A DNA stretch of 64,000 nt from an uncultured Bacillota bacterium (GTDB lineage Bacteria; Sysuimicrobiota; Sysuimicrobiia; Sysuimicrobiales; Segetimicrobiaceae), in assembly GCA_963804645.1 (NCBI GenBank), contig CAWDRG010000002.1, forward strand, positions 64,001-128,000. The letters are read 5' to 3'. The notes beneath the pieces were generated by a model that saw only the letters and a list, made by a program, of their open reading frames with translations, had not been told where the DNA came from and did not search any database. Both the position numbers and the translations under genes were made by a program. Numbering within the stretch: the stretch's first letter is position 1; each line of letters opens with the position of its first letter. Shown here piece after piece: positions 116 through 9,357 of the stretch.

Positions 116-1903
116 CTAGACAGCCTGCGCGTACGATTCACCGCGGATGTCCGCGCCCGCCTCGAGCACGCCGTTTGCCAGCATGCGAACGACGCACATC
201 GACGACTTGCGCGGGAGCTTCGGCCACAGCCGGACCTTATGCCCGCGGCGCTCCAATGCCGCGATAACCTCCGGCGACAGCGTTTCCTCGACGGTCACCC
301 ACCCCGGGTTTGCGCGGTGGGGATAGAACGAGATCGGCATGCTGTAGGTCGTGACGCGCGGCGCCTCGACGGCCGCCTGCGCGTCGAGGCCGTACACGAG
401 CAGATTCAGGAGCGTCTGAAAGATCGCCTGCACCTGCACGTCACCGCCCGGCGTCCCGAGTCCCATGACGGGGCGCCCGTCGCGCATCACGAGCGCGGGA
501 TTCGGGGTCAGGCGCGGCCGCTTGTGCGGTGCCACGGCGCTCGGGTGGCCCGGCTCCAGGCGCGACTGACGGCCGCGGTGGGACACCGAGATCCCGAGCG
601 CCGGAACGAAGTCGCCGGACCCGCTCGGCGTCGACGAGAAGATCGTCCCGCGGCGGTCCATGACCGTGAGGTACGTCGTGTCGCCGGCGACTTCGTTGGC
701 GCGCGGCACTTCAGGATCGGCGGCGTAGTCGCGTTCCCATCCCATGCGGCCGTCCGGGCGCCCGGGAGGCGGGAGATGCGGCCACGCGCGGTCCAGCGTC
801 AGCATGGCGCGGCGGGAGGCGACGTACGGCTGCGCGAGGAGGGCGTCCATCGGCACGTCGGTAAACACGGGATCCCCGTAGAACGCCTCGCGGTCGGCAA
901 ACGCGAGCTTCAGGGTCTCGAGCACCAGATGCAGGTGGTCGGGTCCGTTGTGGGGCAAGGCGGCGAGGTCGAACCCCTCGATCAGCCGCAGCGCCTGCGC
1001 GATGACGGGGCCCTGTGACCACGGACCGCAGACGTGCACGGCGTAGCCGAAGACGTTCGCGATGACCGGGGGCTCGAGGCGGACGTGGTACTCGGCGAGA
1101 TCCTCGTACGTCATCAACCCCCCGGTCTCGGCGCAATATCGTGCGATGTCGTGCGCCGGGGCGCCCGTGTAGAAGTAGTCGCGCGCCGCCCGAATGCTGG
1201 CCTCGCGTCCGCGGGACCGGTGGCGCGCCGCTTCGGCGACGAGCGTGTCCAGCAGGGCCGCGAGCGCGGGCTGCCGCACGAGGTCGCCCGGCTGCGGGAC
1301 GCGGCGGTTCGGCGTCAGGACGGCCGCCGTGGTCGGCTGGTCGTCGAAAAAGTCGGGGCCGAACCCGGCGTGGTAGTCGGTGAACGCCTCGTAGGCAGGG
1401 AACCCGTCCGCCGCGGCCCGCCGGGCGGGCGCGACCACGTCCGCGAGTTCCATGGTGCCCGCGCGCGCGAGCGCCGTCAGCCAGGCGTCGAGCGCCGCCG
1501 GCACGACCGACCCCGCGGTCCCGCGCGGCGGCAGCTTGCCGCCATGGTGCTGTTGGAAGTACTCGACGGTGGCGCGGGCCGGCCACCAGCCCAGGCCGTC
1601 GATGTTGTCCACGACGCGGCGCACGGGGTCGTACAGGATGATCGGCGCCTCGCCCCCGAGGTTGGCCATGTGCGGTTTGACCACGTTGAGGACCAGCCCG
1701 GCGGCCACGCCCGCGTCGACCGCGTTGCCGCCGGCGCGCAAGATCTCGTATCCGGCCTGCGAGGCCAGGTAGTGGCCGGCCGCGATCGCGCCCTCGGCGC
1801 CGCGCACCACGGGTCGGTAGGTGTGATTGCCGTCGGGCGGCCGCGCGACCATGTTGTGGATCGCGTAGGCGGCATGCTCGTCGTTCGTCGTCGACCGGTT
1901 CAT
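116..1903 (-). CDS. gamma-glutamyltransferase family (Ntn hydrolase) protein
   Basis: GGNAVDAGVA N-terminal motif, DTTYLTVMD nucleophile Thr, GTPGGDVQ oxyanion motif; ATG at 1903 preceded by AGGAGG. Confidence 0.9.
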   Translation of the reverse strand: MNRSTTNDEHAAYAIHNMVARPPDGNHTYRPVVRGAEGAIAAGHYLASQAGYEILRAGGNAVDAGVAAGLVLNVVKPHMANLGGEAPIILYDPVRRVVDNIDGLGWWPARATVEYFQQHHGGKLPPRGTAGSVVPAALDAWLTALARAGTMELADVVAPARRAAADGFPAYEAFTDYHAGFGPDFFDDQPTTAAVLTPNRRVPQPGDLVRQPALAALLDTLVAEAARHRSRGREASIRAARDYFYTGAPAHDIARYCAETGGLMTYEDLAEYHVRLEPPVIANVFGYAVHVCGPWSQGPVIAQALRLIEGFDLAALPHNGPDHLHLVLETLKLAFADREAFYGDPVFTDVPMDALLAQPYVASRRAMLTLDRAWPHLPPPGRPDGRMGWERDYAADPEVPRANEVAGDTTYLTVMDRRGTIFSSTPSGSGDFVPALGISVSHRGRQSRLEPGHPSAVAPHKRPRLTPNPALVMRDGRPVMGLGTPGGDVQVQAIFQTLLNLLVYGLDAQAAVEAPRVTTYSMPISFYPHRANPGWVTVEETLSPEVIAALERRGHKVRLWPKLPRKSSMCVVRMLANGVLEAGADIRGESYAQAV

Positions 1904-1952
1904 CGCCCGTCCTCCTGTTCGTGTGTCCCCATCGCCGCGGTGGCCGGTTGGG

Positions 1953-2831
1953 TTAGACGTTGCCGCGCAGCCTCGGATCGAACGCATCGCGCAGGCCGTC
2001 TCCCAACAGGTTGGAGCCGAGCACCAGCAGCGCGATCGCGAGCCCCGGACCCAGGCTCACCCACGGGGCCGTGGTCAGGACGACCATCCCGTCGTTCACC
2101 ATCAGTCCCCACGACGGCGTGGGCGGGGGCGGCCCCAGGCCGAGGAAGCTCAGGCCCGCTTCGACGAGGATCGCATCGCCGACCGTGAGGCTGGCCAGGA
2201 CGAGGAGCGGCGCCAGCACGTTGGGGAGAATGTGGACGGCGATGACCCGTCGGTTCGTGTTCCCGACGACGCGCGCCGCGAGCACGTATTCTTTCTCGCG
2301 CTCCTCGAGGACCTGCCCGCGCGTCAGGCGCGCGAACACCGGCGTGACGGCCAGGCCGACGGCGAGCACGACGCCGATCTGGGACGGGCCGAGCGTCGCG
2401 ATGACGAAGATCGCCGACAGATACAGTGGAAACGCCAGCATCGTGTCGACTACGCGGCCGATCACCCCGTCGACCCAGCCGCGGTAATACCCCGCGGCCA
2501 ATCCCAACAGCGCTCCCTGGACGGCGCCGACGAGCACCGCGCCGAGCCCCGTGACCAGCGACAGCCGCGCGCCCCACACCGTGCGGCTCAGCAGGTCACG
2601 GCCCAGCCGGTCGGTGCCGAGCCAGTGTGCGATCGTCGGCGGCTGATTCTGATCGAGCAGGTGCTGCTGCAGGGGGTCGTACGGGGCCAGCGCCGGCGCG
2701 AGCAGCGCCACCAGGACGATCCCGAGCGTCACCGCGAGCCCGAACACCGCCCCGCGCGAGCGCAGCAGGGTGCGCGCGGCCAGGCGAAGCGGCGAGGACG
2801 CCGCGCGGCGCGAGCCGGCGTCGCTACGCAT
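1953..2831 (-). CDS. dppC: peptide/nickel ABC transporter permease (DppC/OppC type)
   Basis: HWLGTDRLGRD, EYVLAARVVG (EAA loop), HILPN, GDGLRDAFDP motifs. Confidence 0.93.
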   Translation of the reverse strand: MRSDAGSRRAASSPLRLAARTLLRSRGAVFGLAVTLGIVLVALLAPALAPYDPLQQHLLDQNQPPTIAHWLGTDRLGRDLLSRTVWGARLSLVTGLGAVLVGAVQGALLGLAAGYYRGWVDGVIGRVVDTMLAFPLYLSAIFVIATLGPSQIGVVLAVGLAVTPVFARLTRGQVLEEREKEYVLAARVVGNTNRRVIAVHILPNVLAPLLVLASLTVGDAILVEAGLSFLGLGPPPPTPSWGLMVNDGMVVLTTAPWVSLGPGLAIALLVLGSNLLGDGLRDAFDPRLRGNV

Positions 2832-3762
2832 AGGCGATGCGGGGATCGACCAGACTGTACGCGATGTCGACGAGCGCGTTCACGACGATGACGATCACGA
2901 GGAACACGACGAGCGTGCCTTGGATCTGCGGCAGGTCGCGCGCCAGCACGGCATCGACCAGGAGCTTCCCGATGCCGGGCCGGCTGAACACCACCTCGAC
3001 GATCGCGGTTCCGGCGAGCAGGTGCCCGATTGTCACCCCGAGGATCGTGATCACGGGCAGCAGACTGTTGCGGAGGGCATGCCGGTACAGGACCGCTCGC
3101 CGCGTGGCGCCCTTCGCGCGGGCCGTCCGGACGAAGTCGAGCCCGAGGACGTTGAGCAGCGACGATCGTGAGATGCGCGAGAGGAGCGCACCGGTCCGCA
3201 GGCCCAGGACGAGCGCCGGCAGGACCAGACCGCGCAGCGTCTCGAGCGGGCCCCCCGCCCCGCCCCCGATCATCGGAAACCACCCGAGCTCGAAGGAAAA
3301 CACCAGCAGCAGAGCGAGCCCCAGCACAAAGCTCGGCACACAGATCGCGAGCAGCGCTCCCCCCATCGTCAGGAAGTCGAGGGCGCGTCCGCGGTGGAGC
3401 GCAGCGGCCATGCCGAGCGGGATCCCGAGCCCCACGGAGACGATCGTGGCAGCCGCCGCGAGCTGCGCCGTGGCCGGGAACTGTCCGGCGATGATGTGCG
3501 CGACGGGCTGCTCGGAGCGAAACGACGTGCCGAGCCGTCCGGTCGCGAGGTTGCCCATAAAGCCGAGATACTGGGCCACGAGCGGGTGGTTGAGTCCGAG
3601 CCGGATCCGCATCGCGGCGGCCGTCTCGGGCGTAAACTGGTCTTGGAGCAGCGCGGCGACCGGATCGCCCGGCATGAGGTGCACCATGAAAAAGATCACG
3701 GTCGCACCGGCCAACACCGTCGCGAGCGACGCCGCCAGCCGGTAGGTGCAGTAGCGCAGCAC
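2824..3762 (-). CDS. dppB: peptide/nickel ABC transporter permease (DppB/OppB type)
   Basis: MPGDP, DFVRTARAKG, HALRNSL, VDPRI motifs; overlaps dppC start. Confidence 0.93.
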   Translation of the reverse strand: MLRYCTYRLAASLATVLAGATVIFFMVHLMPGDPVAALLQDQFTPETAAAMRIRLGLNHPLVAQYLGFMGNLATGRLGTSFRSEQPVAHIIAGQFPATAQLAAAATIVSVGLGIPLGMAAALHRGRALDFLTMGGALLAICVPSFVLGLALLLVFSFELGWFPMIGGGAGGPLETLRGLVLPALVLGLRTGALLSRISRSSLLNVLGLDFVRTARAKGATRRAVLYRHALRNSLLPVITILGVTIGHLLAGTAIVEVVFSRPGIGKLLVDAVLARDLPQIQGTLVVFLVIVIVVNALVDIAYSLVDPRIAYA

Positions 3763-6506: not shown

Positions 6507-6930
6507 CAAGCATCCCTCCCGACCGTGGTGCGTTCCGCGTGCCGGTGCGCGCGGCATCGGGTCCCCCGCTCCTGTCCGCACGTGTTCCCGACGGCATGCC
6601 GCGCGGCGGAGACGCGTCCGCGAGGATGGCGACAATGGCTGGCGGCGAAACGCTGCTGAGTTATGGTAAACGGGACGCCGCGTCGAACTGAGGGGCGTGC
6701 CGGGCGATGTCCGCGCACGTATCACACGTGTATTGGCGGACCGCGCGTCGGTTTCCTTTCGCCGCGATCCGCGGGGGCCGCCGCCTCGGCGGCGGCCCAT
6801 CACAGGGGCTCGGGACCGCGCCGCGGAAGCACCCGTCGATCTGCGTAACGCCGCGCGCGGCCACCATACGCGGCGCGAACGCGCCGGGCTCGTGAGCGGA
6901 CGGCCGGTCCGCGGGACGGCGCCTGCGGAT

Positions 6931-7362
6931 TTACTTGATATTCCCGACGATCGCGTTGTTTGTATCGGTCACACTCTTTTCGATGTCCGACGCGGTCTGA
7001 AGAAGTTTCGACCGCAGATCCATCAGCATCTGCAGCTGCATGGAAGCCATCTCAGATATTTCGTTGTCGCTGTCCAGGTCATTTTGGAGCGTCGAGATCG
7101 CGCTCTGGACCTGAATCACAGCCAGCGGCGCAGACTCGCCGGTGAGTTGAACCGAGACCGGCGAGTTGCCCGCGGCCACCGGCACCGTGGCGCCGTCTTG
7201 GTCCTCGTAAAAGCCGGACGTGACCGACAGCCCCGACGCGGTCTCGCCATTACTGCGCACGAGGATCGCGACGCGCCCGGTTAGTTTTCGCGATGGTGCG
7301 CCCGTTCGCTTTGCCCCTGCGGCCGTCCTCCGGTCCGGTGGTGCCGTCCGTCTCGCGGTCAT
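6931..7362 (-). CDS. hypothetical protein with type III needle/filament-like C-terminal helix
   Basis: Strong AGGAGGA RBS; C-terminus LQMLMDLRSKLLQTASDIEKSVTDTNNAIVGNIK. Confidence 0.7.
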   Translation of the reverse strand: MTARRTAPPDRRTAAGAKRTGAPSRKLTGRVAILVRSNGETASGLSVTSGFYEDQDGATVPVAAGNSPVSVQLTGESAPLAVIQVQSAISTLQNDLDSDNEISEMASMQLQMLMDLRSKLLQTASDIEKSVTDTNNAIVGNIK

Positions 7363-7522
7363 CGGCGTCCTCCTGGATCGTGCGTGACGCGGGCCGCGCG
7401 GCGCGTCCCCGCGGCCGGCCCGCACCTCGTACCAGCGTAGGGTCTTCGTTCAGGTCGAGCTGTTCCCCCCTCGTCGGGGCGATGCGGCGAGGCACCTGGC
7501 GCGTCGAGTGTCCGGCCACGGC

Positions 7523-7551
7523 TTGACAGGCCCGACACACCGGCGTATTTT
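7523..7551 (+). promoter_or_regulatory. sigma70-type promoter of the ankyrin gene
   Basis: TTGACA (7523-7528), 17 nt spacer, TATTTT (7546-7551). Confidence 0.75.
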
Positions 7552-7557
7552 CTGCAT

Positions 7558-7684
7558 GGCTGGGCAAGCAGCCGCCGGACCCGCGGGAAGGGCTAAGCCC
7601 ACTTGCGCACACCGAAGACCGCTTCAGCCTCTGTGCAGCCGGAGTTGCGGGTCGTCGGCGTCGATACGCATGGAGGTGCGTATG
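7558..7684 (+). ncRNA. candidate structured cis-regulatory leader RNA
   Basis: Nested stems found by eye (7573-7584/7647-7660, 7590-7600, 7607-7636) plus hairpin ATACGCA-TGGAGG-TGCGTAT covering the SD and start codon. Confidence 0.55.
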
Positions 7685-9253
7685 CCGTCTCTGCCCGACC
7701 GTCCCAATCTTTCCCACCTCAAGAGGCAGGCGAGAAACCTGCTGCGCGGGTACCGGCGAGGAGATCCGTCCGCGGCGGCCCGCCTGCGGCAGTGGCTTCC
7801 CGCCGCGCGGGGCAAGGATGACGCCGCGCTCCGCGCCCTCGATCTCCGGCTCCACGACGCGCAGTCGTGCGTCGCTCGCGAATACGGCTTCGCGTCTTGG
7901 ACGGATCTCAAAGCGTTCGTCGATGCCCGCGCCGCGGCGCGGGCGCCGCGTGAGGAACTCCTGCGGGCGTGGCTCCCGCTGGTGTACGGGGACGGGTTTC
8001 TCCGTCCGAACCCCGTCGCCGCGGCGCGCCTGCTGGAACGCCGCCCCGATCTGATCGACACGGATCCCCTCCTCGCTTGTGCGACCGGCGATGTGCCTCG
8101 GGTGCGCGCCGCGATCGACCGCGACGCGTCCTGGGTCAACCGGCCGGGTGGCCCGCTCAACATGCCGCCCCTCGTTGCGGTGACGCACTCGGGGTTGGCG
8201 CGGCTCGCGGGATGGTCGGCCCGTCTCCTGCGCTGCACCGAGCTGCTGCTCGGCGCGGGCGCGGATCCGAATCAGTCGTGGGTCGACCCCGCGTTTCCGG
8301 CGCACCCCCTCAGCGCTCTGTACGGGGCCGCCGGTAAACTGCATCACGACGCGATGACGCGGGCGCTGCTCGATGCCGGCGCCACGCCCAACGACGGCGA
8401 ATCGCTCTACCACGCGGTGGAAAGCGCCGATCCCACCTGCGCCCGGCTGCTGCTCGACGCGGGCGCGGAGATCGAGGGCACCAACGCGCTGTTTCGCGCG
8501 CTGGACTTCGAGCCGCTCGCGCCGCTCGCGCTGCTGCTGTCCCGAGGCGCCGACCCCAACACGCGCCTGAACGGACACGCGCCGCTCCACCACGCGATTT
8601 GGCGCGGGCGGTCCGCGGACCACGTCGCCGCGCTGCTCGCCGCGGGGGCCGATCCGACCGCGTCGAACGCGGACGGCCTGACCCCGTACCGCCTCGCGCT
8701 GCGCTACGGCCACCTCGCGGTCGCGGCGCTGCTGCGGCCGCGCGGGCTCGAGGAATCGGTCGCGCCCGAGGAGGCGTTTGTCGCCGCCTGCGCGTGCGCG
8801 GACCGCGCGGCGGCGGCGGGGCTGCTCCGCCGCGACCCCGCCCTGCTCCGCCGCCTTTCCCCGGACCAACTGCGCGTGCTGCCCGACTGTGCCGCACACG
8901 GACGAGGGGACGCGGTCCGGGTCATGGTCGAACTCGGGTGGCCGGTGGACGTCCGCGGCGGTGATTGGGACGCGAGCGCCCTGAACCTCGCGGTGTTTCG
9001 GGGCGACGCCGACCTGACGGCGTGGCTGCTCGGGCACGGCGCCGACTGGCGCGCGGAACACGGGTACCACGACAACGTGATGGGCACGCTGAGCTTCGCG
9101 TCGACCACCGAGCCCGTCGAGGGCGGGGATTGGCTCGGGTGCGCCCGCGCCCTCGTGGCCGCGGGCATGCCCCGTCCACCCGCGGTCTATCGCTTTTCGG
9201 AGGAGGTCGCCGACTGTTTCGCGGACGCGGCACATGCGTCCGGACGGGGCTGA
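7682..9253 (+). CDS. ankyrin repeat protein with N-terminal LPxRPNLxHLKRQA...AREYGFASW domain
   Basis: Repeated LLxAGADPN and PLHHA ankyrin motifs; GGAGG RBS. Confidence 0.9.
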   Translation: MPSLPDRPNLSHLKRQARNLLRGYRRGDPSAAARLRQWLPAARGKDDAALRALDLRLHDAQSCVAREYGFASWTDLKAFVDARAAARAPREELLRAWLPLVYGDGFLRPNPVAAARLLERRPDLIDTDPLLACATGDVPRVRAAIDRDASWVNRPGGPLNMPPLVAVTHSGLARLAGWSARLLRCTELLLGAGADPNQSWVDPAFPAHPLSALYGAAGKLHHDAMTRALLDAGATPNDGESLYHAVESADPTCARLLLDAGAEIEGTNALFRALDFEPLAPLALLLSRGADPNTRLNGHAPLHHAIWRGRSADHVAALLAAGADPTASNADGLTPYRLALRYGHLAVAALLRPRGLEESVAPEEAFVAACACADRAAAAGLLRRDPALLRRLSPDQLRVLPDCAAHGRGDAVRVMVELGWPVDVRGGDWDASALNLAVFRGDADLTAWLLGHGADWRAEHGYHDNVMGTLSFASTTEPVEGGDWLGCARALVAAGMPRPPAVYRFSEEVADCFADAAHASGRG

Positions 9254-9357
9254 CCGGACCGTCGGGTGCGCGGATCCGACTCAGGCCACATGCGGGCAAG
9301 TGGACGTCATGCGCCGGCGACGGCGAACACTCCGACACCGATTGCTCCCCGGTCTTC

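Follow-up and report, generated by a model that had tools for sequence, protein, structure and literature searches.

A covarying double-pseudoknot leader RNA predicted to sequester the Shine-Dalgarno sequence of bacterial ankyrin-repeat genes

In the SAM-II, SAM-V, preQ1-II/III and guanidine-III riboswitches, the ribosome-binding site is one strand of a conserved pseudoknotted fold of the 5' untranslated region (5' UTR), and these RNAs work without terminators, so that control is exerted on translation. The Escherichia coli rpsO (S15) pseudoknot, other ribosomal-protein leaders and the T4 gene 32 pseudoknot likewise include the Shine-Dalgarno sequence (SD) in a pseudoknotted 5' UTR. The orphan riboswitch candidates nadA, pnuC, folE and raiA are covarying 5' UTR motifs, identified by comparative genomics, each of which is exclusive to one gene family. 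The likenesses to riboswitches and autoregulatory pseudoknots are meant as analogies of mechanism, not as membership. Here we describe a leader RNA in a 64,000-nucleotide (nt) stretch of DNA from an uncultured Bacillota bacterium (assembly GCA_963804645.1, contig CAWDRG010000002.1, positions 64,001 to 128,000), hereafter the window. Positions 7558-7681 of the window very probably make up the entire 5' UTR of a gene for an ankyrin-repeat protein and belong to an uncatalogued family of structured leaders; we are highly confident that this is a real, conserved, SD-sequestering leader, and we treat it as a new family within that group.

The family fold is, as judged from compensating base changes in 71 homologues, a double pseudoknot, in which helix P1 crosses P4 and P5 and helix PK crosses P0. 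Covariation reveals both this structure and the pairing of the SD; from these we infer the regulatory consequence, most likely a control of translation by SD sequestration. The promoter, the elements of the leader and the gene lie on the forward (+) strand of the window as follows.

7523-7551, +: sigma-70-type promoter, TTGACA (7523-7528), 17-nt spacer and TATTTT (7546-7551), with a predicted start at about 7557-7559
7558-7573, +: hairpin P0, GGCUG (7558-7562) with CAGCC (7569-7573), loop GGCAAG; covariation
7565-7568 with 7602-7605, +: helix PK, CAAG of the P0 loop with CUUG; covariation
7575-7576, +: CC, unpaired in the consensus fold, conserved at 97% and 99%
7578-7584 with 7647-7653, +: helix P1, GACCCGC with GCGGGUC; covariation
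7585-7589, +: junction GGGAA, unpaired core (G 100%, G 96%, R, A 90%, A 100%)
7590-7600, +: hairpin P2, GGGC-UAA-GCCC (7590-7593 with 7597-7600); covariation
7601, +: conserved A (86%), directly 5' of the PK 3' strand
7606-7627, +: variable linker, 15-37 nt in the family, with no consistent hairpin
7628-7636 with 7668-7676, +: helix P4, anti-SD CCUCUGUGC with SD region GCAUGGAGG; covariation
7668-7676, +: SD region GCAUGGAGG, the 3' strand of P4, with GGAG conserved at 89-97%
7638-7642 with 7655-7659, +: helix P5, GCCGG with UCGGC, stacking under P4; covariation
7682-9253, +: regulated gene (ATG 7682-7684) for the 523-residue protein P0001, with ankyrin repeats from about residue 235
7682-7966, +: N-terminal helical domain (N-domain), residues 1 to about 95, with no family in Pfam or NCBIfam

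In the proposed mechanism, transcription would start at the foot of P0, whose loop would pair with the CUUG just 3' of P2. The 5' strand of P1, upstream of P2, would pair with the loop of the long 3' hairpin, the stem of which would consist of P5 stacked on P4, with P4 built from the anti-SD and the SD itself. Folded in this manner, the leader would keep the small ribosomal subunit (30S) off the SD, and an effector stabilising or loosening the fold would set the rate of translation. The 3' strand of P1 sits in the loop of P5. Since the connectors are short (AGUU 5' of the P1 3' strand, one or two bases 3' of it), P1 would be able to stack on P5 and P4 as a single long rod, which is a geometric argument and not a computed model. 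The unpaired bases CC 7575-7576, GG 7585-7586, AA 7588-7589 and A7601 are near-invariant. As a separate observation, the P1 5' strand and its 3' neighbours (7580-7587) read CCCGCGGG, or UCCGCGGA in most members, which is self-complementary, and two leader molecules could in principle pair through it.

To evaluate the fold, two alignments were fitted to different nested subsets of helices, which makes each helix testable where it was not fitted. Alignment A4 (47 sequences) was fitted to P0, P1 and P2 and leaves PK, P4 and P5 unfitted, and A6 (71 sequences) was fitted to P0, P2, P4 and P5 and leaves P1 and PK unfitted. Over A6 as a whole, 96.1% of 2323 cells are paired. The figure for shuffles is 82.6%, with none of the 500 attaining that of the real alignment, and 37-54% remain paired when the partners are slid along by 1-3 columns. 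The shuffle control ignores relatedness, and the slid control together with the many independent pair types is the stronger argument. Two-sided changes are found in 29 of the 34 pairs of the six helices in A6. A first-pass annotation, made from the window alone, would have been refuted by the lack of a conserved, covarying structure upstream of homologous genes, but the alignments display such a structure.

Both crossing helices hold up where they were not fitted. P1 is paired in 99.1% of cells in A6 with two-sided changes at all seven pairs, so that GACCCGC/GCGGGUC of the window recurs as GUCCAC/GUGGAC, GUCUGC/GCAGAC or GUUCGC/GCGAAC. PK reaches 91.7% in A4 and 92.9% in A6 with changes at 4/4 pairs, the CAAG:CUUG of the window being replaced with CAGG:CCUG, GAAG:CUUC and UCGG:CCGA. 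P0 is paired in 91-92% of cells, with two-sided changes at four of five pairs (GC, CG, UA, AU), and P2 in 100%, with changes at three of four (closing pair CG, UA, UG or AU). The pairing of the SD itself is carried by P4, paired at 93.4% unfitted in A4 and 95.8% in A6, with two-sided changes at 7/9 pairs and variants as different as UGUGC/GCAUG and CUUUC/GAAAG. Its pair 7633:7671 is G.U, G-C or A-U and never A/C among the first 15 sequences. P4 is rich in G.U pairs and has a mean duplex energy of -9.8 kcal/mol, which falls in a tunable range as judged from other SD-masking RNAs. P5 is paired at 90.5% unfitted in A4 and 97.4% in A6, and its middle pair 7641:7656 occurs as CG 36, GC 16, UA 14 and UG 1 times, with two unpaired cases.

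This fold differs from the one drawn in the first-pass annotation, where an outer stem enclosed two hairpins in a three-way junction, followed by a local hairpin around the SD. All of those stems can be drawn in the window and most of them occur in its minimum-free-energy fold, but only two are conserved and covarying in the 71 homologues. One is the inner part of the outer stem, which is P1, whereas the outermost two pairs of its CGCCG/CGGCG extension are unpaired in 29/46 and 35/42 sequences. The other is the hairpin GGGC-TAA-GCCC at 7590-7600, identical to P2. The GCACA/TGTGC stem with an inner GAAG/CTTC is not conserved in the family: hairpin formation in the linker has a mean z of -0.06, with 13/70 sequences below -1, and the GAAG/CTTC part is already broken in a 91%-identical second copy. 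The three-way junction is not a conserved feature. The SD is hidden by the long-range helix P4 and not by the local 7-bp hairpin AUACGCA-UGGAGG-UGCGUAU (7664-7683; -7.9 kcal/mol in the window), which is paired in 41.9-44.1% of cells and is confined to the window and its close kin. Two folds compete in the window, a nested one resembling the earlier drawing (-46.3 kcal/mol) and the nested part of the family fold without P1 (-31.9 kcal/mol), where P1 alone is worth about -11.6 kcal/mol. The SD is paired in both. A pairing of CGCGGG with CUUGCG, suggested by RNAalifold on four sequences, was rejected, since the final bases of CUUGCG change without constraint in additional homologues.

TTGACA-17-TATTTT, proposed as the promoter in the first-pass annotation, matches the consensus at 10/12 positions and is the sole such site in 6800-8000, where shuffles expect 0.1. 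DNA similarity to two relatives of the same genus begins at 7557-7558, the predicted start, and the DNA further upstream is unrelated. A TANNNT hexamer lies 11-13 nt upstream of the first P0 base in 52/71 sequences (at exactly -12 in 34), and TTGACA-like -35 boxes are visible upstream of many family members. As the -10-like hexamer holds this set distance, the RNA appears to begin at P0. The first-pass annotation had placed the start near 7558, with a leader of about 125 nt. G+C around the site is about 70%. A motif scan found no terminator-like site in the leader.

These data bear on the possibility that there is no functional RNA, and that the copies are alike because gene and flank were recently transferred horizontally, or because the region codes for an N-terminal extension or upstream open reading frame (ORF). 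Window-type copies from different phyla are indeed very alike (115-141 bits with covariance model R1, below), an in-frame ORF from GTG 7508 passes through the leader of the window, and the fold energy is not unusual. Divergent copies, however, keep their pairs by means of the two-sided changes described above, kin differ by a 1-nt indel in the linker, and the sequence upstream of P0 is unconserved while the spacing of the -10 box is kept. In-frame stops precede the start codon in 42/69 leaders, and leader lengths leave remainders of 2, 1 and 0 upon division by three in 35, 22 and 12 cases; together these rule out an N-terminal coding extension. Covariation and in-frame stops largely refute this explanation as a whole, and we consider it very improbable.

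The 71 homologues come from four phyla: the small phylum of the window itself, Acidobacteriota, Planctomycetota and, through one Variovorax isolate, a fourth. A DNA search of the assembly of the window and 60 relatives returned four significant matches: the window itself, another copy within its assembly (90% identity, on contig C7), and copies in G004 (81%) and G005 (74%), which are among the six other genomes of the genus. The many short BLAST matches with E between 0.001 and 10 across all 61 genomes were regarded as chance. Scanning metagenome contigs with a two-part pattern gave 14 loci, nine of them true homologues; L036, L038, L040, L043 and L044 were dropped, as other parts of the motif were missing on inspection. 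A second pattern with another anchor, run over 185,579 species genomes, yielded a Bryobacteraceae metagenome-assembled genome and the cultured isolate Variovorax sp. OK212, which has a single copy. It also recovered the G004 and G005 sequences (L049 and L047) along with one chance match, L050, which was discarded (no SD, only 9.2 bits).

Covariance model R1, built from 15 sequences, added three copies, two of them from the Bryobacteraceae genome and the third from a genome of the Gemmataceae, and matched 33/151 sampled Bryobacteraceae genomes with up to five copies per genome in that search, a sixth being found later. For wider sampling, a second model, R2, matched 10/151 genomes of Planctomycetota, 13/151 of Acidobacteriota, 1/151 of the order of Variovorax (the query genome only) and, among 94 genomes of the phylum of the window, the assembly of the window (G000), G004 and G005. 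Weak matches at L057 (19.7 bits) and in G011 (29.3 bits, a partial match of 66 nt) were set aside, and the unpublished genome G034, on which nothing else here depends, gave no match by either DNA search or R2. Horizontal movement of the gene together with its leader is suggested by the scattered distribution and by how alike the window-type copies of different phyla are.

Several copies deserve separate mention. The second copy of the assembly, on contig C7 (4486 bp; locus L031, 2069-4403), is 91.5% identical to window 6930-9266, and its flanks are unrelated. Its gene carries a single additional base behind codon 13, which breaks the annotated frame, and the N-domain is readable in another frame; the locus may represent a paralogue or a copy in decay, or it may come from a related strain, a contig of which was binned into this assembly (contamination 4.17%). 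At L101 (1457-1553), a structural variant keeps only the 5' half, i.e., P0, the P1 5' strand, P2 and PK, whereas L112 (1501-1663) and L088 (521-685) carry an insert of about 20-30 nt between the 3' strands of P1 and P5. The region 7300-8300 of the window is also represented by contigs 90-99% alike, mostly at least 95%, in three DNA runs labelled peat metagenome (X1, X2 and X4, from two studies), which differ between strains at positions 7609 and 7622 of the variable linker.

In 69 of the 71 homologues, an ORF with the N-domain follows the leader within a few bases. The remaining two are the frameshifted copy on C7, where a six-frame search still finds the domain encoded, and a contig end, so that all 70 testable RNA copies directly precede an N-domain gene. 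In the opposite direction, an N-domain profile run on five genomes found the RNA at 14 of 15 loci (2/2, 4/4, 6/7, 1/1 and 1/1), the sole miss being an N-domain fragment with a stop codon, and in 151 Planctomycetota genomes the RNA is present at 15 of 19 N-domain loci. Up to six RNA copies occur per genome, each in front of its own paralogue. The link to the LKxQAK...AREYGFxSW domain proposed in the first-pass annotation is thus borne out, and it persists when the C-terminal part changes. Among 48 proteins scanned, this part consists of ankyrin repeats in 43, leucine-rich repeats (LRR) in one (L111), a T2SSF/T2SSE-like region in one (L097) and no family in three (L054, L086 and L100).

Two of these genes stand apart. 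In L111 (Acidobacteriota G410, gene 1635-3140, + strand) leucine-rich repeats come after the N-domain, and the gene retains the leader RNA. In L097 (Planctomycetota G261, gene 2-1507, - strand) the N-domain continues without a break in frame into T2SSF-like and T2SSE (secretion ATPase) parts, which may be a real fusion or an assembly join; the leader of this gene has only 47% G+C. Short public proteins join the N-domain to Clp_N (P0068 and P0071) or GNAT (P0070).

The N-domain comprises two conserved helical segments, (LPxRP)NLxxLKxQAKxLL and LxDAQxxIAREYGFxSWPKLKA, separated by an insert of 0-60 residues, and its AlphaFold2 model consists of five helices with a predicted local distance difference test score (pLDDT) of 91. 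It carries a net positive charge in 58/69 cases, with a median isoelectric point (pI) of 9.7, and the rest of the protein is acidic (median pI 5.7; below 7 in 59/63). Below the Pfam threshold, 8 of 23 members resemble Glyoxalase_8 over about the first 55 positions of that family, and a sub-threshold OST-HTH/LOTUS hit in one of the 23 (E 0.037) was treated as noise. A structure atlas search returned only unnamed clusters with scores of at most 0.88. A literature search turned up neither such an RNA nor the N-domain, most subscription journals and supplements lying outside its scope.

We favor, tentatively, a mechanism in which the effector would be the product of the gene itself, acting through its N-terminal helical domain in negative feedback. 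This is favored because the N-domain is the only thing common to all regulated genes and the RNA is private to it, and also because the RNA follows the N-domain across differing C-terminal parts, every paralogue keeps it and the domain is usually basic. The statement as a whole, from SD sequestration to N-domain feedback, we put at somewhat short of an even chance. A stronger version, which we find doubtful, would make the leader and the first ~90 codons one portable module, with the N-domain as a new RNA-binding domain that recognises the leader of its own mRNA (messenger RNA) and shuts off translation, perhaps in cis while emerging from the ribosome. Such a module would explain why the RNA follows the N-domain and not the C-terminal part, why each paralogue has a private copy, and why both are spread jointly over four phyla.

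A number of observations weigh against this interpretation. Ankyrin and LRR proteins are not known as typical autoregulators. The N-domain resembles no solved nucleic-acid-binding fold: Foldseek gave no hit at E ≤ 0.001, a wide structural search (VIA) reached a Z of 4.1 at best, and a sequence profile search of the PDB gave none below E 0.16. Eleven of 69 N-domains are neutral or acidic. Four of the 19 Planctomycetota N-domain loci lack a model match; one of them looks by eye like a diverged variant with recognisable P0, PK, P2 and anti-SD, and another adjoins an upstream gene, which leaves no room for a leader. No conserved pairing that would release the SD by capturing the anti-SD was found, as pairing between linker and anti-SD has a mean z of -0.02 with 11/70 sequences below -1. 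The conserved unpaired bases (CC, GG-R-AA and A) and the pseudoknots would fit a small-molecule aptamer equally well. The lone metatranscriptome run gives one contig covering 7300-7411 only and is uninformative on the leader. Finally, the leader of the window folds at -60.4 kcal/mol, where shuffles give -60.68 ± 4.28 (z 0.07), and 99 out of 200 of them do as well or better.

The Rfam 15 search (4227 models) is consistent with the earlier view that the RNA belongs to no known class. For window 6800-8200 at E ≤ 10 it returned only unrelated, sub-threshold matches to ybhL (17.3 bits) and MIR1144 (16.3 bits), both in the coding region, and 15 further member loci gave none at E ≤ 1. Because the fold energy is no better than that of shuffles and Rfam offers no match, the single sequence by itself leaves the finding undecided. 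The evidence beyond chance is comparative and not thermodynamic.

A new-class riboswitch for a small molecule or ion, with P0, PK, P1, P2 and the conserved junction bases as its aptamer, is possible but in our judgement rather unlikely. In an OFF version, the ligand would stabilise the pseudoknot stacked on P5 and P4 so that the SD stays paired; in an ON version, it would shift the 3' GG strand from P5 to the 5' CC. Several features suit such an RNA: the pseudoknotted fold is complex and about 125 nt long, some unpaired nucleotides hardly vary across the four phyla, the linker varies in length and sequence, the conserved fold contains a G.U-rich SD helix, and Rfam has no match. With riboswitches in general the leader shares a covarying structured 5' UTR domain and an expression platform overlapping the SD. 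Moreover, two conserved CC (7575-7576 and 7639-7640) compete for one GG (7657-7658). The C-G pairs of 7575-7576 with 7657-7658 (P1b) are possible nearly everywhere and never vary. As part of the fold P1b (5' CC-N with 3' N-GG) was rejected, having two invariant pairs only and a third that fails in 41/69 sequences, where the corresponding P5 pair fails in 2/69; it is retained as a possible alternative pairing replacing P5. On the other hand, the testable copies, 70 of 70, all stand before genes of a single protein family for which a role in metabolism or transport is not evident, and an enzyme or transporter gene is never found downstream, so a shared metabolic theme is missing. As many as six copies in one genome, each in front of its own paralogue, would be atypical of a metabolite riboswitch. 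The search for a conserved mutually exclusive structure was negative, and the gene context suggests no ligand.

Less probable still, and improbable overall, is a leader that responds neither to a ligand nor to the protein encoded behind it but to temperature or to a protein or small RNA acting in trans on all paralogues, or one that acts constitutively as a damper or stabiliser of the mRNA. Pairing of the SD in one conserved fold with no conserved alternative would agree with this, and near-identical cores among the paralogues of one genome would suit a common regulator. Two pseudoknots and invariant junction bases nevertheless exceed what masking of the SD needs, and the RNA follows its gene horizontally into four phyla, which argues against a host-specific trans factor. 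The leader does not resemble the known RNA thermometers of the ROSE or fourU type, with no Rfam match and with a fold that is a double pseudoknot with invariant junction bases and not a simple SD hairpin.

Next to the leader, a small ORF (P0002; 6931-7425, - strand) is oriented divergently, and Pfam and NCBIfam assign it to no family. Its 3' part is low in G+C (0.545 at 6900-7099 versus about 0.70 around), and the C-terminal ~60 residues look helical and are repetitive in S, T, Q and D. P0002 was duplicated along with the leader and the ankyrin gene on contig C7.

If confirmed, the family would represent a new and fairly widespread class of structured cis-regulatory RNA, whose architecture, in which the SD forms part of a fold with two pseudoknots, is unusual. 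Both the uncharacterised N-terminal domain and a large family of bacterial ankyrin-repeat proteins would gain a first handle on their function. Either outcome would be valuable, as it would lead to a new riboswitch ligand or to a new RNA-binding domain with feedback control.

Compared with SAM-II, SAM-V, preQ1-II/III and guanidine-III, this leader, with 0 relevant Rfam hits, is larger (about 125 nt), has two pseudoknots and two extra hairpins, and is tied to a single non-metabolic protein family. The gene families of the nadA, pnuC, folE and raiA motifs pointed to a metabolite, whereas the N-domain/ankyrin family gives no such clue. Like the autoregulatory leaders of S15 and gene 32, the present one occurs only before the gene family whose product would bind it, as reflected in the downstream ORFs of the 71 copies and in both gene-to-RNA censuses. 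S15 and gene 32 proteins are established RNA binders, while the candidate binder here is an uncharacterised helical domain fused to ankyrin repeats or LRR. Unlike S15 and gene 32, this family has many paralogues per genome, each with its own copy of the leader.

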